DNA of 64,000 nucleotides, taken from the NCBI GenBank assembly GCA_965218795.1, contig OZ244653.1, positions 3,168,001 to 3,232,000 of the forward strand. Reading direction: 5' to 3'. Made by a program: the position numbers and the translations under genes. Of the stretch, positions 3,340 to 59,170 are shown piece by piece (the first letter of the stretch is position 1; each line of letters opens with the position of its first letter). This DNA is from a bacterium. GTDB lineage: Bacteria; UBA8248; JACPRG01; G963555815. The notes under the pieces are model-generated. The model saw only the letters and a program-made list of their open reading frames with translations, was not told the DNA's origin and did not search any database.

Positions 3340-6078
3340 ATGGCCATTGCAGAAGCCATTCAGACCATCACCGTAACAATTGACGGCGAGGAGGTATCCG
3401 TTCCCGAGGGGACGACCCTCTATGACGCCGCCCTTTCCATCGGCGCCGAAATCCCCACACTGTGCCATGAAACCAAGCTGAACCCTGTGGGGGTCTGTCG
3501 GGTCTGCGTCGTCGAGGTGGAAGGAGGCCGCGTCCTTGCGCCTTCATGTTGCAGGACGGTCGAGGAAGGCATGGTCGTCAAGACGGCCTCCGAGCGGGTC
3601 AAGAATTCGCAGAAGATGCTCGTCGAGCTTCTGATGGCGGATCATCCGGCTCCCTGCGAAAGGCACCGGAAAACGGGCGACTGCGAGCTGGAGGTTCTGG
3701 CCGATCGGCTGGGCCTGACGGATTCCAGATTCGCGCCCCGTGCTCACGAAAACGGCCGTGATACCTCCTCCAAAGTCATCGACGTCGACCACGACGCCTG
3801 CATCCTTTGCGATCGGTGCATCCGGGCCTGCACGGACCTTCAGTCCAACGACGTTATCGGCCGGACGGGCAAGGGCTTTCCGGCGAAGATCAGCTTCGAC
3901 TTCGATCTGCCGATGGGCGGATCGACCTGCGTTTCCTGCGGGGAATGCGTGGCCGCCTGTCCCACCGGCGCACTGACCGAGAAGCCGTTGGTCGCCGAGC
4001 GCAGGGAAACCGCAAATCAGGTGGGCTCCGTCTGCCCCTACTGCGGGGTCGGATGCTCCATTACTTACCACGTGGAGGACAACCACATCGTCGGCGTCAC
4101 GGGCAGGGAAAGTCCGGTGAACCACGGGCGCCTCTGCGTGAAGGGCCGCTACGGATACGACTACGCCCACCACAAGGACCGGCTAACGGTCCCCCTGATA
4201 CGCAAGGACGGCGCGCCCAAGTCCCCCGAATCCCTCGACCACCCCATGGACGCCTTCCGCGAAGCCACCTGGGAGGAAGCCATGGATCGGGCGGCCTCCA
4301 GCTTCCTGCGAACCAAGCGGGCACACGGCTCTGACGCGCTGGCGGGTTTCGGTTCCGCCAAGTGCTCGAACGAGGACAACTACCTCTTTCAGAAACTGAT
4401 TCGCGCGGTCTTCGGGACCAACAACGTCGACCACTGCACACGGCTCTGCCATGCCTCTTCCGTGGTCGCACTGATGGAGCAGATCGGCAGTGGCGCCGTG
4501 TCCAACGTGTTCGCCGACGTGGGCCTGGCCGACGTGGCGCTGGTGGCCGGCTCCAATGCCGAGTCCAACCATCCAGTGGCGGCGACCTTCATGAAGGAAG
4601 CGCAAGAGTCCGGGATGAAGCTGATCGTGGCCGACCCGCGCAAGGTTTCCCTCGCGCGGCGCGCCGACTACTATGTCGGCTTCCGGCCGGGGACGGACGT
4701 CGCATTCTTCAACGGCATGCTGCACGTCATCTTCCGGGACGGGCTGGAAAACAAGAAGTTCATTGCAATGCGGACAGAGGGTTTCGAGGCTCTCCGCCGG
4801 CTGGTCGCCGATTATCCGCCCGGTCGCGTGGAGAAGATCACAGGCGTCAAGGCCGAGCTCATCGAAGAAGTCGCCCGGGTGTACGCCACGGCGGAGCGGG
4901 CCATCACCTTCTGGGGCATGGGGATCAGCCAGCATACCACCGGGACGGACAACACACGCTGCCTCGTCGATCTGGCCCTGGTGACCGGCCACATCGGCCG
5001 CCCCGGAACGGGCCTGCACCCGCTGCGCGGGCAGAACAACGTTCAGGGCGCTTCGGACGTGGGTCTCATTCCCACAGTCTACACGGACTATCAGTCGGTG
5101 AAAGATCCGCAGGTCAAGGAAAAGTTCGAGAAGGCTTGGGGCGCCTCCCTGAGCGACAAGCCGGGGCTGACGGTCGTCGAAATCATGCATCAGGTCCTCG
5201 ACGGCAACATCAAGGCCATGTACATCATGGGCGAGAACCCCCTCCTCTCCGACCCCAACACCAATAAGGTCAAAAAGGCGCTCGCCGCGATGGAGTTCCT
5301 GGTCGTCCAGGATATCTTCCTGACCCAGACCGCACGGTACGCGGACGTCGTCCTTCCAGCCACCGCATTTCCGGAAAAGACCGGGACATATACCAACACG
5401 GACCGCCGCGTCCAGGTCGGAGAGAAGGCGCTCGTTCCGCCCGGACAGGCCCGCACGGACTGGGAGGTGGTCGCGGACATGGCGCGCCGGATGGATTACC
5501 CCATGAAATACGATTCGGTCGAAGAGATATTCGAGGAAGTCCGCGCCGTCACGCCCAGCATGGCGGGCCTGACGTACGATCGGCTCCGGGAGACCGGGGG
5601 CATCAACTGGCCCGCGCCCGATGAGGACCATCCGGGGACAAACGTCCTCTTCGAGGAAGAGTTTCCCAACGGCAAGGGAAAGCTGGTCGCTTGCGAATGG
5701 AAACCGGCCTTCGAGGTCGAAGACGATGAGTATCCGCTCATCCTCAACACCGGACGCATGCTCGAGCACTGGCACACGGGCGTCATGACCCGCCGGTCCA
5801 AGGCCCTGCACGGCATCCAGCCCGAAGCTCTGGTGGAGATGCACCCGGACGACCTGGAGGAACTGGGAGTGAAGAGCGGGGATTTCGTCCGGGTGAGCTC
5901 CCGGCGCGGTGAGATCCGCCTGAAGGCAATCGGGACGGACTACACGCCGAGAGGCAGCGTGTTCATCCCCTTCCATTTCGAAGAGGCGGCGGCCAACCTC
6001 CTGACCATCGACGCTCTCGATCCGTACGGAAAGATCCCCGAGTTCAAGTACTGCGCCGTCAAGGTCGAACCGGCGTAG
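3340..6078 (+). CDS. fdhA: Formate dehydrogenase alpha subunit (Mo/W-bisPGD, Cys-type)
   Basis: N-terminal FeS motifs, CPYCGVGC, HCTRLCHASS active site, PLRGQNNVQG, C-terminal KIPEFK; start at ATG 3340 after an AGGA-rich RBS. Confidence 0.93.
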   Translation: MAIAEAIQTITVTIDGEEVSVPEGTTLYDAALSIGAEIPTLCHETKLNPVGVCRVCVVEVEGGRVLAPSCCRTVEEGMVVKTASERVKNSQKMLVELLMADHPAPCERHRKTGDCELEVLADRLGLTDSRFAPRAHENGRDTSSKVIDVDHDACILCDRCIRACTDLQSNDVIGRTGKGFPAKISFDFDLPMGGSTCVSCGECVAACPTGALTEKPLVAERRETANQVGSVCPYCGVGCSITYHVEDNHIVGVTGRESPVNHGRLCVKGRYGYDYAHHKDRLTVPLIRKDGAPKSPESLDHPMDAFREATWEEAMDRAASSFLRTKRAHGSDALAGFGSAKCSNEDNYLFQKLIRAVFGTNNVDHCTRLCHASSVVALMEQIGSGAVSNVFADVGLADVALVAGSNAESNHPVAATFMKEAQESGMKLIVADPRKVSLARRADYYVGFRPGTDVAFFNGMLHVIFRDGLENKKFIAMRTEGFEALRRLVADYPPGRVEKITGVKAELIEEVARVYATAERAITFWGMGISQHTTGTDNTRCLVDLALVTGHIGRPGTGLHPLRGQNNVQGASDVGLIPTVYTDYQSVKDPQVKEKFEKAWGASLSDKPGLTVVEIMHQVLDGNIKAMYIMGENPLLSDPNTNKVKKALAAMEFLVVQDIFLTQTARYADVVLPATAFPEKTGTYTNTDRRVQVGEKALVPPGQARTDWEVVADMARRMDYPMKYDSVEEIFEEVRAVTPSMAGLTYDRLRETGGINWPAPDEDHPGTNVLFEEEFPNGKGKLVACEWKPAFEVEDDEYPLILNTGRMLEHWHTGVMTRRSKALHGIQPEALVEMHPDDLEELGVKSGDFVRVSSRRGEIRLKAIGTDYTPRGSVFIPFHFEEAAANLLTIDALDPYGKIPEFKYCAVKVEPA

Positions 6079-47244: not shown

Positions 47245-47820
47245 TGCACTGCCCTTGCAAGGGGGTTGCAAGGGGCGATTCCCCTCCCCCCATTTTCTTC
47301 GTCCTGGACCCCTACCAAGTGCTCGTCGGGGCAGGCCCTCGGTCATTCCCGCCCCCGATTGAAGCCTTCGGGGGCATGCTTGAGCCTTCCCGTGCGCCTG
47401 CCTGGCCGGCAGGCGGGAATGACGGACCGGGGGCGAGTCCCCGAAGGCTCTTGTTGGAGGCCATGCCGCATGGGGTCCCGTCCCTGTCGCGGCAACAAGG
47501 CCGCTCCCTTTGCCGCGTCAAGCCGAACAGCCGTCTCTCCCCCCACCGGAAAATCTGCAGGCTGCGCCCTTGATTTGCCGACTCCCCCTCAAGGGGGGGA
47601 AGATTGATGGACGAGGAGACCATAACTGGATTCCCGCTTTCGCGGGAATGACGGGCCGGGGGCGAGTCCCCGAAGGCTCCCGTTGGAGGCCATGGCGCAT
47701 GGATTCCCGCCCCTGTCCGGCAACAAGGCCGCTTTGCCGCGTCAAGCCGAACAGCCGTCTCTCCCCCCACCGGCTCGGCTGCTCCTTGCCGACTCCCCCT
47801 CAAGGGGGGGAAGATTGAAG
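47245..47820. repeat. Mosaic array of REP-like palindromes
   Basis: Two related units starting GGGAATGAC and ending CTCCCCCTCAAGGGGGGGAAGATTGA, plus CCTTGCAAGGG and dRS3-like hairpins. Confidence 0.85.
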
Positions 47821-47989
47821 GACCAGGGGCGGGTATTTGCGCCTTCGGGGGACGCGGCGGGGCGCATTCGGGCGATGACGGTTTGGTTTGGAGGCTTGGA
47901 CAGGCATGGGGCCGTATCCTGCAAAGGCGGAAACCTGGACGAAAAAAGGCATCAGCATGGATATGGAGGGGGGTGACCACTAGATTTTC

Positions 47990-48305
47990 CGGGAGATATC
48001 CAAGGACCACCAGGCGGAAGGGCTGACGGATGAAGACATGTTCGATGTGACCCAGATCGTCGGCTAGTTCAATTACACCAACCGGAGGGCCAACCCCCGG
48101 GGCGAGCCTCAGCATGCAGGACGGAGAAGGCCGTTGGGCGACGTTCGAGGGCCGCGGACGCGTCATGGAGGACCGCCCTACGGTGGAAGAGGCGGTCCGG
48201 CGTCACCGCCGGCGCTATGGCGGCGACACCTCGGTCTCCCCGGATTTCGCCGCCATCGAGATTCAGATCGAACGGGTCATGGGCGAGTGGTGGCTGACCC
48301 GGTGA
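47990..48305 (+). pseudogene. Adjacent remnants: AhpD/peroxidase-related C-terminus and PNPOx-like C-terminus
   Basis: GLTDEDMFDVTQIVG*FNYTNR, then WATFEG.GRV...RY...IEIQIERVMG. Confidence 0.45.
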
Positions 48306-48369
48306 AACACACGCCCAGGTTGAGATTCCAGTGCAGCGGAGCGAAAATCATTGTAAACGGTCCGGAAAC

Positions 48370-48600
48370 CGCCCTTGTCCGGCAACCAGGCCGCTCTCTC
48401 CGCCGCGTGAAGCGGAACGGCCTCTCCCCCCACCGGAAAATCCGCGGGCTTGAGCTCTTGATTTTCCGACTCCCCCTCAAGGGGGGAGTGATATAAGGAC
48501 CAGGCAGGTTTACACGGGAATGACAGGTGGAAAATCTCCCCGAAAAAGACCCCGGAATCGCCCATGAAAGGTCCTTGCAAGGGCGTTGCAAGGGGCGTGC
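48370..48600. repeat. Further copy of the CTCCCCCTCAAGGGGGGAG composite repeat
   Basis: CGCGTGAAGCGGAACGGCCTCTCCCCCCACCGG...CTCCCCCTCAAGGGGGGAGTGAT matches units in 58270-59065. Confidence 0.85.
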
Positions 48601-50650: not shown

Positions 50651-51145
50651 ATGTTAACATTGGAGTCGCTGGTGCCGAACGCGGGCAAGCGTTTTCACGA
50701 CGCTAGGCTCAACTCTGAAGTCATCTACGGCTTCCACACCCTGGCCATCGACGAGAAGCGCCGCGATTTTCCGCCTTCTCTCTGGAACGAGAGCGACGTT
50801 CAATCACATCAAACCATCGAGCAGGTCTGGTTCGCGGGCGTTCATGCGGATGTGGGCGGCTGGTACGACGAACGCGGCCTATCGAACATCACCTTGCATT
50901 GGATGCTCGGGAAGGCGATGCAGCACGGGTTGGAGGTGGACAAGAATAAGCTCAGAGGATATCGGCGTGATCCGCATGACAAGATGCATCAATCGTATAC
51001 GGGTTTCTGGAAGTTTCGCGGCCAAAGACAGCGCAAGATTCCAGAGGGCGCGACGATCCATGAAAGCGTGTTTGAACGCCGGGACAATCCGGACAACCGG
51101 TATCAGCCCCGGAATCTGCCGGACGAATACGATACGGTGAAGTAG
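50651..51145 (+). pseudogene. C-terminal fragment of a DUF2235/Tle1-like alpha/beta hydrolase
   Basis: H.LAIDEKR..F.P.LW, QVWFAGVHADVGG, L.WM; N-terminal GxSxG region absent. Confidence 0.75.
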
Positions 51146-52079: not shown

Positions 52080-54656
52080 CTAATAGGGTTTAGCTTCGTC
52101 CCAGACGCGGCCGATGGCCGCTGCAATCTTCCCCTCCATCCGCTCCACCAACTCGCGATTGGCGTTGACGAGGGCTTGCTCGGCTTCGATATCGGTAACG
52201 ATGGTTTGTTGGATTTCGATAGATGGGCGAGGGATTTTGGTCTGGAACAATTGCGACCGATTGATCTTTGGAATACTTGCTCGTTCGTAGTGGTACCGAA
52301 TTTGTTTATTGAACGCTTCAGACAGCATATAGGCTGCTAGATAAGTAATCTGGATTTTGGAGTGGTCCGGAAGCAGGGGATACATGTCGGAGCTACAGTA
52401 TCCCTGAAGATCGACAACCGCTAATTTGTTGAGGTATGGTCGGATCTTGCTGTAGAGAAGACGTTCGCCAACAAATTCATAAACCGGGCCGTTTACCCTT
52501 TGGGCTTGAGCCGTCTCCACTTTTAGGAGCTTTCCAGTATTTGATTCAATACTATCTGCGCCGAAGTAAGGAAGGGTGATGTCCACGTCCTTGGTGACAA
52601 TTCCGCCTAGCGAGCACAACTCCCCCAACTCGACCATCGGCCATTCAGGGTCGATGGGGATGTGGGGGCGGTAGTTGTCGATGACGGCGCGGGCGCCATC
52701 GATGACCTTCTGGTAGCCCTCGATCTCGGCGATGATTTCCTTCTGTACTTCCGGGGGTGGGAGGGGTAGTTTGATTCGCTTTAGCGAATTGCCATTAAAC
52801 TGCGGCTGACCCCCTCCGGTCACAAATGCTTTCGCTTGGTTCCAATAGGCGTCGCTTTGGGCGAAGATCCAATAGTATTGAGGATGAACCTGCTCGGGCA
52901 GAAAGCGTAGTCGGATTAGATAGGATGCAAAAACTGCAGGGCAATCCTCCTCAAAGAGCATCGTCTTGCCATAGGTGGCACCGGTTCGAGCAACGAGGAT
53001 GTCTCCTTTTTGAAGAATCGATTCGCGCGCCTCACTTGTCAAGTTAATGAACTTAGGTTCTTCATTTCGAAGCGTTCCATGTTCAGAAATGTCAGTGATC
53101 CGTATGAATCTCGCATCGCCTTCCTCGCTCGCCTTTGCGGTGAAGCCATATTCGGGTTTCGCGAGTTCCCCCAATTCCACCATCGGCCATTTTGTTCTTG
53201 TACGAATTCCATTTTCCCGATACCGCTCACCGCTCAGGTTGTATTCCCCATCCGCGGCGATCCTTTCCTTTTCCACGATGAGGGCGGCCCCTTGCTCGAT
53301 GAGGCTTCCCAACATGGATGGACAGGATGAACGGGATTCCTTCTTATCCTGAATATCCTGCGCATCCATGTTCATGTATTCCTTCACGCCCCGCGCCGTG
53401 TCCGGCAGGTCGTTCCTGTCAATCTCCCGCCGCTGCGCTCCCAGGTCGAACCCGTCGTTCTCGACCTTGAAGAAGGCGATTTTGTCCGTCTTCTTCGCGA
53501 GCGGCTTGTCGAGGATGAGGATCGAGGTCTTGACGCCGGAATACGGCTGGAACACGCCGGCGGGCAGGGAAACGACCGCAACCAGGTACTCGTCGACGAG
53601 CATCCTGCGAAGCTGCTTGTAGGCGTTCTGGCTCTGGAAGATGATCCCCTCGGGCACGATGATCCCGGCGCGGCCCGAAGGCGTCAGGTGCTCGGCCATG
53701 TAGTCCACGAACAGCACCTCGCTCCGCTTGGACTGCACCGAGAAGCGGTTGTGGGGGCGGATCCCGCCCTTGGGCGACATGAACGGGGGGTTGGCCAGGA
53801 TCACGTCGGCGTACTCGTTCCAGCGGTCCTCGCTGGTGAGGGTGTCGTACTCGAAGATGTGCGGGTCACTGAAGCCGTGCAGGTACATGTTCACCAGGGA
53901 CAGGCGCACCATGTCCGGCGAAATGTCGTAGCCCTTGAAGTTCTCCGCCAGCCGGCCCCTTTCGTCGGGGGTCAGCATGGATGTCTGGAATTCACATGGA
54001 TAGACAGGATGGACAGGATTGTCAGTGTGATTTTCATCCTGCCCGTCCCGCATATCCATGTTCGCTCTCAGGATGTGCTTGTAGGCCGAGATCAGGAACC
54101 CGGCGGTGCCGCAGGCCGGATCGAGGACGGTCTCGTCCTTCTTCGGGTCGAGGACCGCGACGATGAAGTCGATGACGTGGCGCGGGGTTCGGAACTGCCC
54201 GGCGTCGCCCTGGGAGCCGAGGACGGAGAGCAGGTACTCGAAGGCGTCGCCCAGGCGCTCGGAGTGATCGTAGGCGAACTCGTCGATGACCTTGAGGAAG
54301 GCGCGCAGGGTCTCGGGGTCGCGATAGGGCAGATAGGCGTTCTTGAAGATGTCGCGGAAGAGCGGCGGTATGCCCGGGTTCTCCGGCATCCTCGTAATGG
54401 CCTCGGCGTAGAGGTTCAGGATCTCGTGGCCGCCGAGTCCGGCGCGCATCAGCCTGGCCCATCCGTAGCGGGCGAACCCGCCGTCGAAGAAGCTGCGCCG
54501 GCCGCCGAGCTCCTCGCTCTCGGCGTCGATGTCGTCCATGAACTTGTAGATGAGGGCGATGGTGATCTGCTCGACCTGGCTCTTGGGGTCGGGCACCTTG
54601 CCCACGAGGATGTCGCGGGCGGTGTCGATGCGGCGTCTGGTGTCGGTGTCGAGCAT
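52080..54656 (-). CDS. hsdM: Type I R-M N6-adenine methyltransferase fused to specificity subunit (two TRDs)
   Basis: GQFRTPR, LDPACGTAGFL, NPPF; WPMVELGEL twice and P...Q..I motifs in the S moiety. Confidence 0.92.
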   Translation of the reverse strand: MLDTDTRRRIDTARDILVGKVPDPKSQVEQITIALIYKFMDDIDAESEELGGRRSFFDGGFARYGWARLMRAGLGGHEILNLYAEAITRMPENPGIPPLFRDIFKNAYLPYRDPETLRAFLKVIDEFAYDHSERLGDAFEYLLSVLGSQGDAGQFRTPRHVIDFIVAVLDPKKDETVLDPACGTAGFLISAYKHILRANMDMRDGQDENHTDNPVHPVYPCEFQTSMLTPDERGRLAENFKGYDISPDMVRLSLVNMYLHGFSDPHIFEYDTLTSEDRWNEYADVILANPPFMSPKGGIRPHNRFSVQSKRSEVLFVDYMAEHLTPSGRAGIIVPEGIIFQSQNAYKQLRRMLVDEYLVAVVSLPAGVFQPYSGVKTSILILDKPLAKKTDKIAFFKVENDGFDLGAQRREIDRNDLPDTARGVKEYMNMDAQDIQDKKESRSSCPSMLGSLIEQGAALIVEKERIAADGEYNLSGERYRENGIRTRTKWPMVELGELAKPEYGFTAKASEEGDARFIRITDISEHGTLRNEEPKFINLTSEARESILQKGDILVARTGATYGKTMLFEEDCPAVFASYLIRLRFLPEQVHPQYYWIFAQSDAYWNQAKAFVTGGGQPQFNGNSLKRIKLPLPPPEVQKEIIAEIEGYQKVIDGARAVIDNYRPHIPIDPEWPMVELGELCSLGGIVTKDVDITLPYFGADSIESNTGKLLKVETAQAQRVNGPVYEFVGERLLYSKIRPYLNKLAVVDLQGYCSSDMYPLLPDHSKIQITYLAAYMLSEAFNKQIRYHYERASIPKINRSQLFQTKIPRPSIEIQQTIVTDIEAEQALVNANRELVERMEGKIAAAIGRVWDEAKPY
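53311..53372. repeat. CAGGAT palindrome inside hsdM-S, in frame
   Basis: AACATGGATGGACAGGATGAACGGGAT-N8-ATCCTGAATATCCTGCGCATCCATGTT. Confidence 0.9.
53994..54061. repeat. CAGGAT palindrome inside hsdM-S, in frame
   Basis: ACATGGATAGACAGGATGGACAGGAT-N16-ATCCTGCCCGTCCCGCATATCCATGT. Confidence 0.9.
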
Positions 54657-54673
54657 AAACGGATTCTTAATTT

Positions 54674-55357
54674 ACATGGATGAACAGGATGGACAGGATC
54701 ATTTCTTGTTCCGTCTATCCGGGTTTGTTCTTACTCCGGGTGAAGCGTTTGTATTCGAGCTTGGGGTTGCCGAAATTGATGAGAAGCCCTACCTCGATGC
54801 CGGTGGCATTCAGGTAGTTGATGATCTGGGCTTGATGCTCCGAGGTGAGGGCCTTCACCGCTTTGAGCTCGACGATCACGTTGTCTTCGATAAGGAGATC
54901 AGCGTAAAAATCGCCAACCGGCTTGCCGCGAAAGCATACTGTGATGGGCTTCTGAGCCTCAACGGAAATCCCTGCACCCAACAGCGCGATAATCATGGCC
55001 TTTTCATAGACAGACTCCAAAAACCCGCTTCCCAAATCGTTGATCACCTCAAAGGCGCAGCCAATGATGGAGCGCGTCAGTTCCTGGTGCAGCCTTTCGG
55101 TATCCATGTCCGGTTCCTTCATTTACATGGATGTACAGGATGGACAGGATTCTGGGATTGATCCGTGTCCTGCCTATCCTGTTGGTCCATGCTTGGTTCC
55201 TTCATTTACATGGATGTACAGGATGGACAGGATTCTGGGATTGATCCGTGTCCTGCCTATCCTGTTGGTCCATGCTTGGTTCCTAAATTTACATGGATGT
55301 ACAAGATATACAGGATAATTTCCATTTTCCTATCCTGTCCATCCTGTTCATCCATGT
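54674..55357. mobile_element. Candidate GxxExxY element bounded by a perfect 26-bp inverted repeat
   Basis: ACATGGATGAACAGGATGGACAGGAT at 54674-54699 and its exact reverse complement at 55332-55357. Confidence 0.65.
54715..55122 (-). CDS. GxxExxY protein (PD-(D/E)XK nuclease fold)
   Basis: GFLESVY, ADLLIE.NVIVELKAV, AQIINYL, GLLINFG; alternative start at 55107. Confidence 0.93.
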   Translation of the reverse strand: MKEPDMDTERLHQELTRSIIGCAFEVINDLGSGFLESVYEKAMIIALLGAGISVEAQKPITVCFRGKPVGDFYADLLIEDNVIVELKAVKALTSEHQAQIINYLNATGIEVGLLINFGNPKLEYKRFTRSKNKPG

Positions 55358-55358
55358 T
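55121..55358. repeat. Three tandem CAGGAT hairpin units with 83-bp period
   Basis: ATTTACATGGATGTACA starts at 55121, 55204 and 55287; the first two units are nearly identical. Confidence 0.92.
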
Positions 55359-55366
55359 TGACTTCT

Positions 55367-57913
55367 CTAGGCGGCGAACCGGTTCAGGGGCACGTAATCC
55401 TTGACGTATTCGGGGATGAGGGTGCGGTACTTCTCCGGCACGGCGCGGAAGTCGCGGGTGGAAAACGCCGGGTGGGTGGCCAAGCCGGTGAACTGTCGTC
55501 TGTCGATGATGTCTCGGACATAGCCGTTGGTGACGTACGCCTTGAAGTAGGTCCTGATGGCCGGGATGGACCGGGCCTCCCGGGGCTTATGGTCGGCGAC
55601 GAACTTGGCGAATTCCTCCTCCAGCAGCTCGTCCCTGGACTTGAAGCGCGGGATGAGGCCGAAGACCTTCTCCAGGATCTCGCGCAGGGTGAGGCGGCGG
55701 TCCACCGCGGCGGCTTTCCGCAGCTTGTCGAGGGTGTAGTACTCCTCGGGTCTGTCGAAGACCTCGCGGTTCACGTAGTCGATCACGCGGTCCCACTGTC
55801 CGGCTTCGACGGCCTGCGCGACGGTCTCGTCCTTGCGCACCGCGTCCTCGAACTTCTCGAAGAACATCCGGTCGATCTTCATCCCTTCGGAGCCGACTTC
55901 CTCTTCCCGGATCGTCGAAAGGATGTCGCGTCCAAGATGCTCATAGGCGCCGCCGGTTCTGACAGACTCTTCGCCGTCCCCGTCCTGGCCGTCCTCGCCG
56001 CCGCTCAAGGCCCGGGGCCGCGGCAGCTTCAATACCTCGTCGTAGTTGAACTCGGTCTCGAAATACTCGCAGTTGCCGAAGAAATCGAAGAGCTTGAAGG
56101 CGGTCTTCTCAGGTTCTTTGACGCCATCCGCGAGCGCGGGGTCGTGTAGCTGGTCGAGGAAATCGTGCGGGCGGGTGCCGCGCCCCTTGATCTGGACGAA
56201 ATCGGTGGGCGAGAAGATGGGGCGGAACAGGCCGAGATTCAGGATGTCGGTGCAGTCGTAGCCGGTGGTCATCATGCCCACGGTCACGCAGACCCGGGCC
56301 TTGCTCGTCCGGTAGCCGTCCAGGAAGTTGGCCGCGCCGAGCAGGTTGTTGTTGGCGAAGTTGACGGTGAACTGCTGGGCGTCCGGCACGTGCGAGGTCA
56401 CCTGCACGGCGAAGTCGGATTGGTATTTGCCGGGGAACATCCGGTCGGCGATCCGGTTGAAACTCTGCGCGAGCTTGGCCGCGTGGCTCTGGCTGACGGC
56501 GAACACGATGGACTTGCCGATCTCGCCGCTGACCGGATCGCGCAGGGCGTTCTCCAGGAAGGTCTTGCAGAAGAGCTGGTTGGTGGCCTCGGAGTAGAAG
56601 CGCTTCTCGAACTCGCGCTGCTTGTAGGCCTCGCCGTGATCCTCTCCCTCGGTATCGGTGAACGAGACGACGAACCCCTCCTCGGAGAGGAGCTGCGTGG
56701 TCACTTCCGTGCGGGCGTCCACCACGGTCGGGTTGATCAGGTATCCGTCATTCACGCCGTCGAGCAGCGAATATCGGAAGGTGGGGTGCCCGCTCTCGCA
56801 GCCGAAGGTGCGGTAGGTGTCGAGGAGGAGGCGCCGTTCGGCTTCGCGCGGGTCATGCGCCGCGGCGCCGTTCTTTCCGGCGCCCTTCAAATAGTCGCGG
56901 GGCGTGGCCGTCAGGCCGAGCTTGCAGCCCACGAAAAAGTCGAACACCGCGCGGGCGTTGCCGCCGATGGAGCGGTGCGCCTCGTCGGAGATTACGAGAT
57001 CGAAATCGGTGGGCGAGAAAAGCCGCCGGTATTTGTTGTCGAACAGGAGCGATTGCACGGTGGTGACGACGATCTCGGCGCGCCGCCACTCGTCCCGGTT
57101 CTCCTTGTAGACGACCGTCTGAAAGTCCGCCGAGAGCAACGCGGTGAAGACCTTCCGGGCCTGTTCCTCCAGTTCCAGCCGATCCACCAGGAAGAGGGCG
57201 CGGCGGGCGTTGCCGGAACGAAGGAACAGCTTGATGACGGCGGCGGCGGTGAGGGTCTTGCCGGTGCCGGTGGCCATTTCGAAGAGAAAGCGGTCGCCGC
57301 CGTCTTTCACCGCCTGCTGGAGGGCATGGATCGCTTTGAGCTGATAGGGGCGCAGAAAGCGCAGTTTGTTGGCCTGGATGAAGCCGGATCGCTCGGCTTC
57401 GTTCTTCCACGCGGCTTCGGAGGCGTAGTTCGGCCGCTGCGTGAGGACGATGTAGTCGTCTCGGACCCGTTCATCGATCAGGCGCCGCGGGTCGGGCGAG
57501 ACCTTCTGGTAGCCGGATACCGAATCCGGCGTCGGGAACGAGGTGATGACGTAGGGATTGCCGCGCTCCAGATCCCAGAAGTAATGCAGGTTGCCGTTCG
57601 ACAGGATGACGAAGCGGCAATTCTGCGAGCGGGCGTATTTGCGGGCCTGCTCCTTGCCGGCGAGGGGGTTCCTGTCCTCGGACTTGGCCTCCAGGACGAT
57701 CAGGGGAAACCCCTTGGCGTCGAGGAGCAGGAAGTCGATGAAACCTTTGGAGGTATTCTCGAAGTCGTCGCCCAGGGGGTCGAGGTCGGATGCCTCGATC
57801 GTGACGCCTGTCTCAAGGCAGATGTTGGCGGGCTCTCCCCCTTCGGCGAAGAAGCGCCAGCCGGCCGCTTCGAGCAGCCTGTTGATCTTGATGCGGGAAG
57901 CGGCTTCGTTCAT
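55367..57913 (-). CDS. hsdR: Type I restriction endonuclease subunit R
   Basis: IDFLL..VLEAK..QARKYA nuclease motifs, MATGTGKT, DEAHRS, LTATP, QIKGRGTR. Confidence 0.93.
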   Translation of the reverse strand: MNEAASRIKINRLLEAAGWRFFAEGGEPANICLETGVTIEASDLDPLGDDFENTSKGFIDFLLLDAKGFPLIVLEAKSEDRNPLAGKEQARKYARSQNCRFVILSNGNLHYFWDLERGNPYVITSFPTPDSVSGYQKVSPDPRRLIDERVRDDYIVLTQRPNYASEAAWKNEAERSGFIQANKLRFLRPYQLKAIHALQQAVKDGGDRFLFEMATGTGKTLTAAAVIKLFLRSGNARRALFLVDRLELEEQARKVFTALLSADFQTVVYKENRDEWRRAEIVVTTVQSLLFDNKYRRLFSPTDFDLVISDEAHRSIGGNARAVFDFFVGCKLGLTATPRDYLKGAGKNGAAAHDPREAERRLLLDTYRTFGCESGHPTFRYSLLDGVNDGYLINPTVVDARTEVTTQLLSEEGFVVSFTDTEGEDHGEAYKQREFEKRFYSEATNQLFCKTFLENALRDPVSGEIGKSIVFAVSQSHAAKLAQSFNRIADRMFPGKYQSDFAVQVTSHVPDAQQFTVNFANNNLLGAANFLDGYRTSKARVCVTVGMMTTGYDCTDILNLGLFRPIFSPTDFVQIKGRGTRPHDFLDQLHDPALADGVKEPEKTAFKLFDFFGNCEYFETEFNYDEVLKLPRPRALSGGEDGQDGDGEESVRTGGAYEHLGRDILSTIREEEVGSEGMKIDRMFFEKFEDAVRKDETVAQAVEAGQWDRVIDYVNREVFDRPEEYYTLDKLRKAAAVDRRLTLREILEKVFGLIPRFKSRDELLEEEFAKFVADHKPREARSIPAIRTYFKAYVTNGYVRDIIDRRQFTGLATHPAFSTRDFRAVPEKYRTLIPEYVKDYVPLNRFAA

Positions 57914-58202: not shown

Positions 58203-59070
58203 TGGATTCCTGCTTGCGCAGGAATGACGGGCTGGGGGCGAGCGCCCGAAGGCTCTTGTCGGAGGCCATGCCGCATTGGTTCCCGGCCCTGTCCGACAAC
58301 AAGGTGATCCTCCGCGTGAAGCGGAACGGCCTCTCCCCCCACCGGCAAGATCCGCGGGCTGCGCCCTTGATTTGCCGACTCCCCCTCAAGGGGGGAGTGA
58401 TTCAAGGAACCGGGGGCGGGCTTCCACGGGAATGACAAGTGGAAAATCCGGGGAATTCCGGGGCGAAACGGCCGAGGAAACGTCAAGGGTGTATGAGGCG
58501 TTATAAGACCCCCCACCACACAGCCTTCGCCTCGGGGCTCGGCTTCTGCGACTCCCCCTCAAGGGGGGGAAGATTGATGGAGCAGGAGGCTGTGTCGCAT
58601 GGGTTCCCGGCCCTGTCCGGCAACAAGGCCCCTCCCTCCTCCGCGTGAAGCGGAACGACCTCTCCCCCCACCGGAAAATCCGCGGGCTGCGCCCTTGATT
58701 TGCCGACTCCCCCTCAAGGGGGGAGTGATGTATGGAGTGCCGCACCGGCGGGCCGGGCTTCCACGGGAATGACAAGTGGAAAATCCGGGGAATTCCTGGG
58801 CGAAACGGCCGAGAAAACGTCAAGGGTGTATGAGGCGTTATAAGACCTCCCACCACATCAGCCTTCGCCTCGCGGCTCGGCTTCTGCGACTCCCCCTCAA
58901 GGGGGGGAAGATTGATGGAGAAGGAGGCTGTGCCGCATGGGTTCCCGGCCCTGTCCGGCAACGAAGGTGCTCCTCCGCGTGAAGCGGAACGGCCATTTCC
59001 CCCCACCGGCAAGATCCGCGGGCTGCGCCCTTGCCTTGCCGACTCCCCCTCAAGGGGGGAGTGATTGATG
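58203..59070. repeat. Tandem A-B-A-B-A composite palindromic array, period ~337 bp
   Basis: CCACGGGAATGACAAGTGG at 58424 and 58761; CTCCCCCTCAAGGGGGG at 58379, 58552, 58707, 58890, 59043. Confidence 0.9.
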
Positions 59071-59170
59071 GAGAAGGGGCGGGGCGTTCGTCCTGTATGA
59101 TGGGAACGCCGGCGCCGGGCAGGATGCCCGGCCGGCCGTAGGTCTCACTCCGCGCCGGAGAGGACAGGAC

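Follow-up and report, generated by a model that had tools for sequence, protein, structure and literature searches.

The hsd locus and its palindromes

The window, that is, the whole 64-kb stretch of bacterial DNA that was analysed, carries a type I restriction-modification (R-M) locus in which hsdR, a GxxExxY gene and hsdMS form a co-directional unit, hsdR being the first gene. The features of this locus, with the evidence for each of them, are the following:

52080..54656, minus strand: hsdM-S fusion gene, 858 aa, intact (ORF; Pfam; PADLOC; 120 listed homologues)
53310..53372, minus strand: in-ORF copy A of the palindrome, site 2, aa 429-449, NMDAQDIQDKKESRSSCPSML (arms; nhmmer E 9.1e-18)
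53994..54062, minus strand: in-ORF copy B of the palindrome, site 1, aa 199-221, NMDMRDGQDENHTDNPVHPVYPC (arms; nhmmer E 9.8e-21)
54666..54726, minus strand: copy C, lying between the GxxExxY stop and the hsdMS start (nhmmer E 8.6e-14; arm map)
54715..55122, minus strand: GxxExxY / PDDEXK_3 nuclease gene, 135 aa (PF13366 6.9e-42; TIGR04256)
55117..55364, minus strand: tandem palindromes D (55117-55201), E (55200-55283) and F (55283-55364) (nhmmer E 7e-22 to 1.6e-19; repeat families D5 and D6)
55367..57913, minus strand: hsdR, 848 aa (Pfam ResIII and HSDR_N; PADLOC REase_I; 81% nucleotide identity to locus L026)

The 858 codons of hsdM-S are read without interruption. Its product has the Pfam domain N6_Mtase at aa 133-479 (1.1e-47) and two Methylase_S domains, and PADLOC recognised it both as MTase_I (315.7 bits) and as Specificity_I. 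The protein consists of the HsdM N-terminal part, motif I (DPACGTAGFL), the segment ANPPF with the NPPF motif IV, and two target recognition domains (TRDs). An N6-adenine methyltransferase with motif I and NPPF, two TRDs and an adjacent HsdR is what characterises a type I HsdM-HsdS fusion, and the window protein has all of these; its 120 listed homologues are 56-75% identical. The protein scored below the NCBIfam equivalog cut-offs (56.9 against 242.75 for hsdM) and therefore represents a distinct subfamily. Locus L026 shows 81-87% nucleotide identity across the hsd locus.

Two diverged palindromes of 60-85 nt lie in frame inside this ORF. They had been noticed in the initial annotation, and we found both the arms and the translations at the places it gave. 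The arms of copy A (53311-53337 and 53346-53372) are 27 nt long and 78% complementary with a loop of 8 nt, and those of copy B (53994-54019 and 54036-54061) are 26 nt long and 81% complementary with a loop of 16 nt, the nhmmer envelopes being 53307-53378 and 53984-54069 respectively. Both copies are related to each other, as 27 nt agree at 89% and 33 nt at 73%. Copy B is located in the loop after the motif-I helix, 11 residues past motif I, and copy A in the M-S linker at the M-S junction.

Regarding the other copies, C has a perfect distal arm and a degenerate proximal arm that includes the stop codon (TAG) of the GxxExxY gene. Copies D, E and F follow the hsdR stop and precede the GxxExxY start, and D and E form a tandem duplication of 83 nt with 96-100% identity. 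These four upstream copies, the GxxExxY gene that they bound and the spread across phyla described below did not appear in the initial annotation.

A 24-nt IUPAC pattern of the arm, with at most 2 mismatches, matched 9 arms, all of them within 53314-55355, and had 0 matches in 100 dinucleotide-preserving shuffles. Similarly, an nhmmer profile of the copies found exactly six elements (E <= 9.4e-07), all clustered at 53.3-55.4 kb; in the whole window there was no copy outside the hsd locus, the next match having an E of 0.19. As RNA, the in-ORF copies fold with -29.6 kcal/mol (z -4.5 against shuffles) and -37.8 kcal/mol (z -6.0), and folds of -32.5 and -34.8 kcal/mol were obtained in the tandem set. 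Rfam had no family for the element and gave one sub-threshold match to mir-140 (26 bits against 70).

Insertions at two places of HsdMS

When the protein was aligned with its HsdMS homologues, both peptides faced gaps, as expected from the proposal of the initial annotation that they are insertions of about 20 aa in tolerant loops. At site 1 the query has 30 residues where 101 of the 121 aligned sequences have a 10-residue segment, i.e. 20 aa more. At site 2 it has 34 residues where 78 of the 121 have a 21-residue linker (13 aa more), and this linker is replaced, not merely extended. The aligned sequences could be classified as follows:

i) Site 1. There was no insert in 101 sequences, a window-type palindrome in 11, a GEG-type insert in 5, a QNP-type insert in 2 and another insert in 2.

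ii) Site 2. There was no insert in 78 sequences, a window-type palindrome in 21, a GEG-type insert in 2 and another insert in 20.

Within the M part (aa 1-480) of the 121 aligned sequences, insertions of at least 5 aa occurred only at aa 200-227 and 431-459. Two close relatives, P0002 and P0003, keep related TRDs and lack both peptides. Furthermore, the phmmer alignment with PDB entry 5ybb_A, the best match among the solved sequences, is broken at query residues 198-235, around site 1. No DNA sequence with an empty site was recovered for either of the two hsdMS sites, and in L026, the closest relative, site 1 is filled by another insert. The protein alignments support the view that both peptides are repeat-derived insertions in loops predicted to tolerate them.

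One could argue that the peptides are native coding sequence and that their palindromic structure simply follows from acidic low-complexity coding, with no insertion at all. The half-arm in-ORF matches of L011 and L015 are so weak that they may be due to chance or low complexity, which would fit this idea. Nevertheless, identical arms occur in non-coding DNA of the window and of 119 listed loci from many phyla, the number of arm-pattern matches expected by chance is zero, and the homologues are gapped at both sites, so we regard this explanation as having a negligible probability.

The window-type element is also found at site 2 of L026, L007 and L119. L026 carries a different insert at site 1, which had no match elsewhere among the loci examined. 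In a FastTree phylogeny of the M domain, calculated with the two sites left out, the distribution of the window-type palindrome took 7 changes at site 1 and 8 changes at site 2, and the presence of any insert at site 1 took 16 changes. When only the labelled rows are compared, a minimum of 3 changes is required by the branches with strong support. This reconstruction from aligned sequences shows that the palindrome entered the two places of HsdMS several times, independently. The same two loops of one R-M enzyme have thus been entered by the window-type palindrome and by other repeats, and such repeated independent insertion maps the places at which a type I methyltransferase naturally accepts 20-70 additional residues.

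Do these insertions leave a working enzyme? In P0012, P0022 and P0039 the insert-bearing M part is 93-100% identical and the TRDs only 6-33%. An M module that is kept at this level with different TRDs indicates that selection continues, and the insert-bearing enzyme is likely to be still functional. It is rather unlikely that the insertions inactivated the methyltransferase and that the ORF is an intact-looking relic. Motif I binds AdoMet, and an insertion 11 residues past it could interfere with the binding of this cofactor; L105 has a decayed hsdMS remnant interleaved with palindromes, and the hsdMS copy of L026 is frameshifted. On the other hand, the 858-aa ORF of the window is open with its motifs intact, the M module is conserved in the three proteins just mentioned, a gap of variable length at site 1 is seen in solved homologues too, and hsdR is intact next door. 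In type I systems an intact hsdR without a working methylase would be lethal.

Copy A was also considered as a breakpoint of TRD shuffling and rejected. Identity to P0012, P0022 and P0039 drops only after aa ~481, which is about 30 aa beyond the element.

Very unlikely, in our opinion, is that the in-ORF palindromes are kept for a role in restriction-modification, either as an mRNA hairpin tuning M-S expression, as an internal ATG start giving a free S subunit, or as substrates of recombination between the copies that would turn the gene off (phase variation). Most homologues do without them (no insert in 101/121 at site 1 and in 78/121 at site 2), and unrelated repeats sit at the same sites in others. 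As recombination substrates the copies are poor, being only 70-77% complementary or 73-89% identical; a recombinase gene is absent from the locus, and the TRD-swap breakpoint lies downstream of copy A and not at the element. Moreover, a promoter and terminator scan gave nothing exceeding shuffles. In favour of such a role are the strong hairpin potential of both copies, one arm set lying 690 nt apart (230 codons), an AAGGA-like stretch upstream of the site-2 ATG, and the recurrence of the palindrome at the two HsdMS sites in many lineages.

Arms, reading frames and the GxxExxY unit

The arm is built of three 9-nt units of the form ATGGATNNN-CAGGATNNN-CAGGAT, and the element ends with TTNAC ... 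GTNAA. Arms start with ACATGGAT and bear no GTAG or CGTC tag. The structure is of the MITE type, with arms of 24-27 nt that are 78-90% complementary and a short, non-coding core, which measured 52-128 nt in the 54 full elements.

The initial annotation had suggested that the 9-nt period favours frame preservation, and on this point our results disagree. The core length modulo 3 was 0 in only 7 of the 54 elements, 1 in 24 and 2 in 23. The in-ORF cores of the window, with 56 and 64 nt, translate their distal arms in different frames. We therefore rejected frame preservation via the period. Since a 9-nt period is also present in unrelated repeats flanking other GxxExxY genes, it more likely reflects putative protein-binding iterons. 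The benefit of the periodic arms is freedom from stop codons: an element has 2.9 open frames of 6, against 1.29 in shuffles. Regarding the frames actually used, none of the 32 in-ORF copies used the hydrophobic ILSILSIH frame, and they were always read in hydrophilic frames, MDxQDxQD plus a SCPSCPSM-like or PVHPVHPC-like one. Selection on hairpin pairing was also considered, and it is weak at best, as at the variable triplets the two arms of an element agree in a fraction of 0.52, against 0.45 between elements.

Among 52 elements we found no direct repeat of 3-6 nt over background at offsets 0-8 that could be a target-site duplication. A TA dinucleotide was present at 13 of the 52, and it is indistinguishable from an extension of the palindrome.

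The GxxExxY gene of the window scores far above the family cut-offs (TIGR04256 144.7 bits against 35; PF13366 142.9 bits against 22); it more probably starts with the ATGGAT of codon 6. It has the GxxExxY motif and the D-ExK triad, with G33, E36, Y39, G70, D75, E85 and K87 invariant in 63 diverse members. Palindrome arms bound this gene in the window and in five other loci (L103, L062, L021, L119 and L105), whose GxxExxY proteins were 63-73% identical by tblastn, with arms abutting each gene. The left arm supplies or adjoins the start codon, which is inside the arm in L105, L021 and L119, and the right arm comes after the stop. The arm-gene-arm unit measures about 460-480 nt and was found in unrelated gene contexts. 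The palindrome corresponds to both ends of this unit minus the gene.

The fusion of the arms with the coding ends could be followed in the 120 closest homologues of the window GxxExxY protein. The N-terminus had the strict form MDxQDxQD in 61 and a loose form in 81, an arm-coded C-terminus was present in 64, either end was arm-coded in 90 and both ends in 55.

Other members of the family have other repeats. The GxxExxY gene of L026 (40% identical) lies between the arms of another inverted repeat, of 26 nt, with CACAA words and a 9-nt period, and translations of this repeat were seen in the longer forms among the homologues of the L026 protein. Eight plasmid-borne genes (31-48% identity) were examined as well. 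Four of them (L123, L125, L126 and L128) had flanking inverted repeats that were unreached by 200 shuffles, the repeat of L122 was marginal (4 of 200 shuffles), and those of L121, L124 and L127 were no better than shuffles. The same test did not place L021 above shuffles, as the right arm of its gene is found only 127 nt beyond the stop. In L123, which is of the Bacteroides type, a 472-nt unit fills the gap from the radA stop to the next start, and the locus of L126 is that of fabD and fabG. The period of the arms is not always 9 nt, being 8 in L126, 8 or 10 in L125 and 11 in L128.

The PF13366 family comprises 17,819 clusters at 50% identity, and Steczkiewicz et al. 2012 (PMC3424549) list it as of unknown function. 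We found no GxxExxY gene in phages and no match in PADLOC. Against PDB sequences the single protein had no match, and a 63-sequence profile gave only a non-significant one (2f8l_A, E 0.061). In the literature searched, GxxExxY, PF13366 and TIGR04256 or the arm and peptide motifs were never tied to inverted repeats or mobility, transposition or cleavage activity of a GxxExxY protein was not documented, and the word 'nuclease' does not occur in PMC11602168.

Spread of the repeat and its likely mobiliser

A dispersal scan that required well-conserved arms found the repeat in at least 120 loci, with 181 elements in 119 of 120 loci among the matches listed. The hosts are at least 87 assemblies from at least 15 named phyla, and not Rickettsia. 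Many of the records are metagenome bins and mis-binning could inflate the phylum count, although complete chromosomes from several phyla are included. The palindromes were mostly intergenic, between ordinary genes: the 201 ORFs next to them come from housekeeping families with no relation to one another, and only PDDEXK_3 and hsd recurred among them. In several assemblies (e.g. OY762429.1 and OZ241917.1) copies were present in different 8-kb blocks of one chromosome. The element DNA had no match in the plasmid and phage collections. In-ORF matches in a histidine kinase (L011) and in a Big_2 protein (L015) consisted of half arms only, possibly due to chance, and were left uncounted.

REP/MITE-type elements are normally lineage-specific, and a repeat common to at least 15 phyla is unusual for them. 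A cognate GxxExxY gene was seen in about 5 of the 119 element-bearing loci among the matches listed, with 8 kb viewed per locus; therefore, within the stretch viewed, most copies are distant from nuclease genes.

We favour, with a probability of roughly 0.75, the interpretation that the element is an in-frame MITE resembling the Rickettsia palindromic elements (RPEs), whose autonomous partner would be the ~0.46-kb repeat-bounded GxxExxY unit and whose mobilisation would depend on the nuclease. The two peptides would then represent copies of a miniature inverted-repeat (MITE/REP-like) element that are in frame and free of stops. The GxxExxY nuclease would recognise the periodic arm motifs and mobilise both the gene-bearing unit and the miniature copies, in the manner of RAYT and REPINs. 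Selection would keep only in-frame, stop-free and hydrophilic insertions in loops that the methyltransferase tolerates, so that the enzyme would stay functional. The copies of the window may have arrived with the hsd module or arisen locally from the adjacent cassette, and would not derive from a genome-wide population in the host organism.

An unlikely alternative, yet the most serious one, is that the palindrome is mobile or host-maintained and is not moved by GxxExxY. The gene would be a passenger or would prefer landing at palindromes, and another enzyme acting in trans, or replication/repair, would spread the repeats. The scarcity of the gene at element-bearing loci (about 5 of the 119 listed), the three plasmid genes of eight without flanking repeats and the lack of a target-site duplication at the 52 elements agree with it, and no transposases are known among PD-(D/E)XK proteins of this size, about 125 aa. 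However, it does not account for the fusion of the arms to the coding ends in 90 of the 120 closest homologues, nor for the start codons inside the arm in L105, L021 and L119. Furthermore, different nuclease subfamilies have different repeats (the window type, L026, L123, L125, L126 and L128), and PDDEXK_3 and hsd are the only recurrent families in the set of 201 adjacent ORFs.

The MITE with a GxxExxY partner can be compared with several known systems. Regarding the RPEs, both are short mobile palindromes whose in-frame insertion into genes adds a peptide that the fold can accommodate, and a MITE review reports 44 in-frame insertions in R. conorii (PMC10969869). The analogy drawn in the initial annotation holds, as a way of working, with what that review describes. 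RPEs measure ~150 bp, are restricted to Rickettsia and have no known partner gene, whereas the window-type element measures 60-130 nt, spans at least 15 phyla, lies mostly between genes and has its arms in common with a nuclease cassette. At the level of their descriptions, the likeness is one of in-frame behaviour only.

The REP/REPIN-RAYT systems, as published accounts portray them, also consist of dispersed palindromes flanking the gene of a presumed mover, in non-autonomous doublets without target-site duplication. RAYT is a Y1/HUH transposase, whereas the partner of the window-type element is a PD-(D/E)XK (GxxExxY) nuclease of ~125 aa; the flanked gene is PF13366/TIGR04256, and neither the GTAG nor the CGTC tag that PMC3733652 describes for REPs is present in the arms. 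While one study presents REPIN-RAYT systems as vertically inherited within lineages (10.1101/2022.05.22.493013), the window-type family crosses phyla with proteins that are 63-73% identical.

Classical MITEs (Correia, ERIC, QMITE1 and Nezha) likewise have terminal inverted repeats and a short non-coding core, and are intergenic and occasionally in frame. They derive from IS elements with DDE transposases and make target-site duplications; for the window-type element no duplication was found, and its relative with a gene measures only ~0.46 kb, the gene being that of a nuclease. Intragenic ERIC and QMITE1 are named in the MITE review (PMC10969869).

ShiLan, according to the account in PMC11855218, is also stop-free and in frame within a DNA methylase gene, that of a phage, and it is larger and said to hide an HNH endonuclease within the insert. 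The window insert, in contrast, is palindromic and non-coding, with the nuclease encoded outside of the host gene.

The last comparison concerns the PD-(D/E)XK homing endonucleases of the I-Ssp6803I type, which are small, selfish mobile genes, free-standing or intron-borne. They copy into one cognate allele and have neither terminal inverted repeats nor miniature derivatives. Judged by its sequence, GxxExxY may similarly be a small PD-(D/E)XK nuclease in a selfish mobile gene, but its units occupy many unrelated intergenic sites.

A broader interpretation, to which we give slightly less than even odds, is that the GxxExxY (PF13366) proteins act as nucleases that mobilise inverted repeat-gene-inverted repeat units of ~0.45-0.48 kb, which would form an unrecognised superfamily. 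The subfamilies would have co-evolved with their own arms of 8-11 nt iterons and spawned miniature copies across phyla. If this is true, miniature copies litter intergenic DNA and are read through as protein where a loop allows it, the two HsdMS loops are recurrent landing or retention sites, and hsd operons are a habitual harbour of the GxxExxY cassette. The unit may even define the smallest gene-bearing mobile unit in bacteria. In-frame palindromic insertions have been described before, in Rickettsia and in a few more bacteria, and taken alone our finding adds another example of them. The arms and the subfamily-specific flanking repeats, on the other hand, suggest a testable role for a very large family of unknown function. 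Finally, the translations of the arms (MDxQDxQD, PVHPVHPC, SCPSCPSM and ILSILSIH) explain many spurious hypothetical proteins and odd termini in metagenome annotation.

The hsd locus and its palindromes

The initial annotation had placed two palindromes in frame inside hsdMS, the gene of a type I restriction-modification methyltransferase-specificity fusion. Both positions and both quoted peptides were confirmed (elements A and B).

Features of the hsd locus, in window coordinates
52080-54656, minus strand: hsdMS, uninterrupted ORF of 858 aa, with Pfam N6_Mtase at aa 133-479 and two Methylase_S stretches
53311-53337 and 53346-53372: arms of element A, 27 nt, 78% complementary, encoding aa 429-449
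53994-54019 and 54036-54061: arms of element B, 26 nt, 81% complementary, encoding aa 199-221
54666-54726: element C, between the GxxExxY stop and the hsdMS start (profile search)
54715-55122, minus strand: GxxExxY/PDDEXK_3 nuclease-family gene, 135 aa, upstream of hsdMS on the same strand
55117-55364: elements D, E and F in tandem, between the hsdR stop and the GxxExxY start (profile search)
55367-57913, minus strand: hsdR, upstream of hsdMS on the same strand

PADLOC assigned the 858-aa product to the type I methyltransferases, at 315.7 bits, and also recognised a specificity subunit in it. The 24-nt arm pattern matched 9 arms in the window against 0.00 expected, and the profile search found six elements of the family in the 64 kb, two of them in hsdMS, and no others. 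Elements D and E form an 83-nt head-to-tail duplicate (55103-55268, 96-100% identical), whose near-identity indicates a recent local duplication. Regarding base composition, GC is 0.49-0.53 in the S half of hsdMS (52080-53300) and 0.61-0.64 in the M half.

Both in-ORF copies retain strong RNA folding (z -4.5 and -6.0), and their peptides have GRAVY values of -1.52 and -1.20. In all 32 in-ORF copies of the family one arm is read in the acidic MDxQDxQD frame; the other arm is SCPSCPSM-like in 22, PVHPVHPC-like in 6 and unclear in 4. None of the 32 uses the hydrophobic ILSILSIH frame, and the in-ORF copies use hydrophilic frames exclusively.

Two loops of HsdMS entered repeatedly by different repeats

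We aligned the query with the best 120 of 8000 scored homologues (56-75% identical; 121 sequences). The segment at site 1, the loop after motif I that holds element B, is 30 aa in the query against the usual 10 aa, and that at site 2, the M-S linker with element A, is 34 aa against the usual 21 aa.

Inserts at the two sites in the 121 aligned sequences
Site 1: none 101; hsd palindrome family 11, including the query; GEG-type 5; QNP-type 2; other 2
Site 2: none 78; hsd palindrome family 21; GEG-type 2; QNP-type 0; other 20

One further site 2 insert (homologue P0083) resembles the family by eye and is additional to the 21. In the conserved M part (aa 1-480) of the 121 sequences, inserts of at least 5 aa are confined to aa 200-227 and aa 431-459, and the phmmer alignment with the solved type I methyltransferase 5ybb_A breaks precisely at query 198-235. 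The proposal that both peptides are insertions in tolerant loops was upheld: the homologues are mostly short at both sites, and P0002 and P0003, which share the target-recognition domains (TRDs) of the query (60-90% identity per bin), have neither peptide. Alignable residues of equal length, which the initial annotation had named as the contrary outcome, were not seen among these best 120 of 8000 homologues.

These two loops have been entered repeatedly, and by different repeats, as follows from three observations. In a FastTree tree of the M domain with both sites left out, in which many forks are weak, the family needs 7 changes at site 1 and 8 at site 2; the same tree needs 16 changes for any insert type at site 1, and well-supported branches force at least 3 changes when only labelled rows of the group table are compared. 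Secondly, P0079, P0085 and P0091 carry the family at site 1 with an ordinary linker at site 2, and eleven other homologues among the 121 carry it at site 2 only. Thirdly, the closest DNA relative among the listed stretches, a Terriglobia MAG chromosome (stretch L026; 81-87% nucleotide identity over hsdR and hsdM), has the same palindrome family at site 2, whereas its site 1 insert, also periodic, is a different one and unrelated to the family. Its hsdMS has four extra bases near codon 37 (L026 6500-6530) that lead to one in-frame stop, through a frameshift or else an error in long-read assembly.

In P0012, P0022 and P0039 the insert-bearing M module stays 93-100% identical in 30-aa bins as far as about aa 480, and TRD identity then falls to 6-33%. 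Since three proteins with such similar M modules have unrelated TRDs, the comparison points to recent specificity swapping in hsdMS. Because it keeps gaining new specificities, the insert-bearing M module is probably under selection and the enzyme likely alive. We also considered element A as the recombination joint of the TRD swap and discarded it, because identity drops only downstream of NLSGERYRE, some 30 aa past the element.

A nuclease-gene unit with the palindrome as its ends

Searching with the 135-aa window protein (tblastn), we found 63-73% identical genes in five of the listed stretches: L103 (Opitutales), L062 (Anaerolineae), L021 (Latescibacterota), L105 (Planctomycetia) and L119. 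The arms adjoin the gene in all five. In L119, L105 and L021 the left arm lies over the gene start, at 6, 15 and 15 nt ahead of the match respectively, and the start codon there is that of the arm's ATGGAT. The right arm lies past the match end by 16 nt in the window, 29 in L105, 37 in L103, 55 in L119 and 127 in L021, and the stop codon TAG falls within an arm in the window and L062. Thus, the palindrome is identical with the ends of a nuclease-gene unit. The surrounding genes are hsdR and hsdMS in the window and L119, and DUF4434 and nucleoside hydrolase genes in L062; because these are unrelated, the arm-gene-arm arrangement of about 460-480 nt is the putative moving unit, and the palindrome would be its two ends minus the gene. 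In L105, hsdMS homologue fragments only (3359-3637; query aa 161-191, 347-376 and 415-449; tblastn) lie directly downstream of the cassette, interleaved with palindromes; this is a decayed hsdMS whose deletion edge adjoins site 1.

The protein termini were examined in the window protein's best 120 homologues (68-99% identity); its own N-terminus lacks QD repeats and therefore does not bias the count. The strict MDxQDxQD N-terminus occurs in 61 of the 120 and its loose form in 81; 34 end in HG, which is the arm read up to its TAG, and C-terminal tails are PVHPVHPC-type in 17 and MDxQD-type in 16. Arm-coded residues stand at one end or the other in 90 and at both in 55.

The GxxExxY family comprises 17,819 clusters (E <= 1e-3); 63 diverse members all have the GxxExxY motif and the D-ExK triad unchanged, and no solved relative is detectable by sequence. 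A 2012 survey of PD-(D/E)XK proteins assigns the family no known function and records multiple transfers between divisions (PMC3424549). Among the 150 best representatives of the family, about twenty (including P0361, P0363, P0364, P0371 and P0380) have 250-280 aa and two matched stretches, and are tandem-fused GxxExxY proteins.

Different nuclease subfamilies carry different arms. The hsdR-hsdMS gap of L026 (5951-6385) holds a 40%-identical GxxExxY gene with its own 26-nt flanking inverted repeat, made of CACAA words with a 9-nt period; the stop codon lies in the first unit, and longer forms among its homologues carry translations of this repeat. The slot is therefore filled by different cassettes. 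In L007 it contains a 197-aa ORF instead.

Eight plasmid records have GxxExxY genes of 31-48% identity. Comparing the best inverted repeat between the two flanks with 200 shuffles, we obtained 0/200 for L123 (30 nt, 90%), L125 (28 nt, 86%), L126 (25 nt, 92%) and L128 (57 nt by the script's local extension), and 4/200 for L122; in L121, L124 and L127 the repeat was no better than in the 200 shuffles. Window-type loci also gave 0/200, except L021, whose right arm is too far out. Arm self-similarity peaks at lag 9 for L026, L123 and the window type, 8 for L126, 8 or 10 for L125 and 11 for L128. The outermost sequence in L123 and L126, TTCAC...GTGAA, is similar to the ends of the window family, TTNAC...GTNAA. 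Three plasmid-borne units are wedged in conserved gene pairs: radA and a FAD-dependent protein (Bacteroides, L123 525-996), fabD and fabG (Sphingomonas, L126 453-908), and ade and mannose-1-phosphate guanylyltransferase (Bernardetia, L125 451-901). The 472-nt unit of L123 directly follows the radA stop, and 5 nt separate its end from the next start.

A dispersed repeat and its possible mode of movement

The arm-pattern scan of species-representative genomes, which is biased to well-conserved arms and in which many records are metagenome bins, gave at least 120 stretches of 8 kb. The palindrome is a dispersed repeat: a profile search found 181 elements in 119 of the 120 listed stretches, and the matches listed come from at least 87 assemblies and 15 named phyla (loci among the 120: Chloroflexota 38, Acidobacteriota 24, Pseudomonadota 13, no phylum given 10). 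By Pfam, the 201 ORFs that lie no more than 120 nt from an element (150 + 51 scanned) belong to housekeeping families with no relation to one another (sugar kinases, transporters, HisD, ribosomal protein L19 and LigA/Pth, for example); only PDDEXK_3 and hsd genes recur. A mechanical count puts 24 of the 181 elements deep inside ORFs of at least 200 aa, and those backed by Pfam domains are in hsdMS only, all at site 2 (both arms in L007 and L026; truncated by the locus end in L119); the in-ORF matches of L011 and L015 consist of half arms and are possibly due to chance. Element similarity is 0.75 within assemblies (22 pairs) against 0.60 between them (1304 pairs), reaching 0.84 across phyla. 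The plasmid and phage collections held no copies, and Rfam has no family for the palindrome.

Each arm consists of three 9-nt units. The consensus arm is open in 6/6 frames and whole elements in 2.9 of 6, against 1.29 in shuffles, and core lengths range from 52 to 128 nt. The suggestion that the 9-nt period favours frame preservation did not hold, since the core length is a multiple of three in just 7 of 54 elements; the period gives freedom from stop codons instead. Variable triplets agree only slightly more often between arms of one element (0.52) than between different elements (0.45); the motif within each arm is conserved rather than arm pairing, which is compatible with protein recognition.

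We suggest that the GxxExxY nuclease would bind the periodic motifs, cut at the ends, and move or copy both the gene-bearing unit and the palindrome. Most insertions into genes would be lost, the survivors being in frame, stop-free, hydrophilic and in tolerant loops. Target-site duplications are absent at the palindrome elements, which sets them apart from MITEs on that criterion and argues against a DDE-type mechanism. A route through single strands, hairpins or repair, like those of REPIN/RAYT and IS200/IS605, would be compatible with this absence. Unlike in REP/RAYT, the partner is other than a Y1 transposase and the arms have neither the GTAG nor the CGTC tag; the difference from RPEs is one of taxon. 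MITEs that lie in frame inside genes are already known, among them RPEs and intragenic copies of ERIC and QMITE1 (PMC10969869), and therefore the hsdMS finding as given is a further case. The literature searched, with subscription journals and supplements outside the search, contained no link of GxxExxY/PF13366/TIGR04256 or of the arm or peptide motifs to inverted repeats or mobility; an earlier description of the GxxExxY-repeat link elsewhere is thus possible.

Regarding the origin of the window copies, the hsd locus lies in a ~10-kb island, partly of low GC (0.44-0.55 at 49.6-53.4 kb against ~0.62-0.68 elsewhere). On either side of the island, at 47413-48510 and 58203-59083, several other repeat families form clusters (spacings 9909 and 10576 nt), one with the CCCCCTCAAGGGGGG palindrome and another with the ATTCCTGC...GCAGGAAT palindrome, none belonging to the hsd palindrome family. 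Because the copies in the window are confined to the hsd locus, and this locus lies in such an island, they probably either arrived together with the hsd module or derive from the adjacent cassette. The low-GC stretch adjoining the hsd genes also contains a 164-aa ORF (50651-51145, plus strand), which matches only positions 202-285 of the 287 in the profile of the T6SS Tle1-like phospholipase catalytic domain and looks like a C-terminal fragment.
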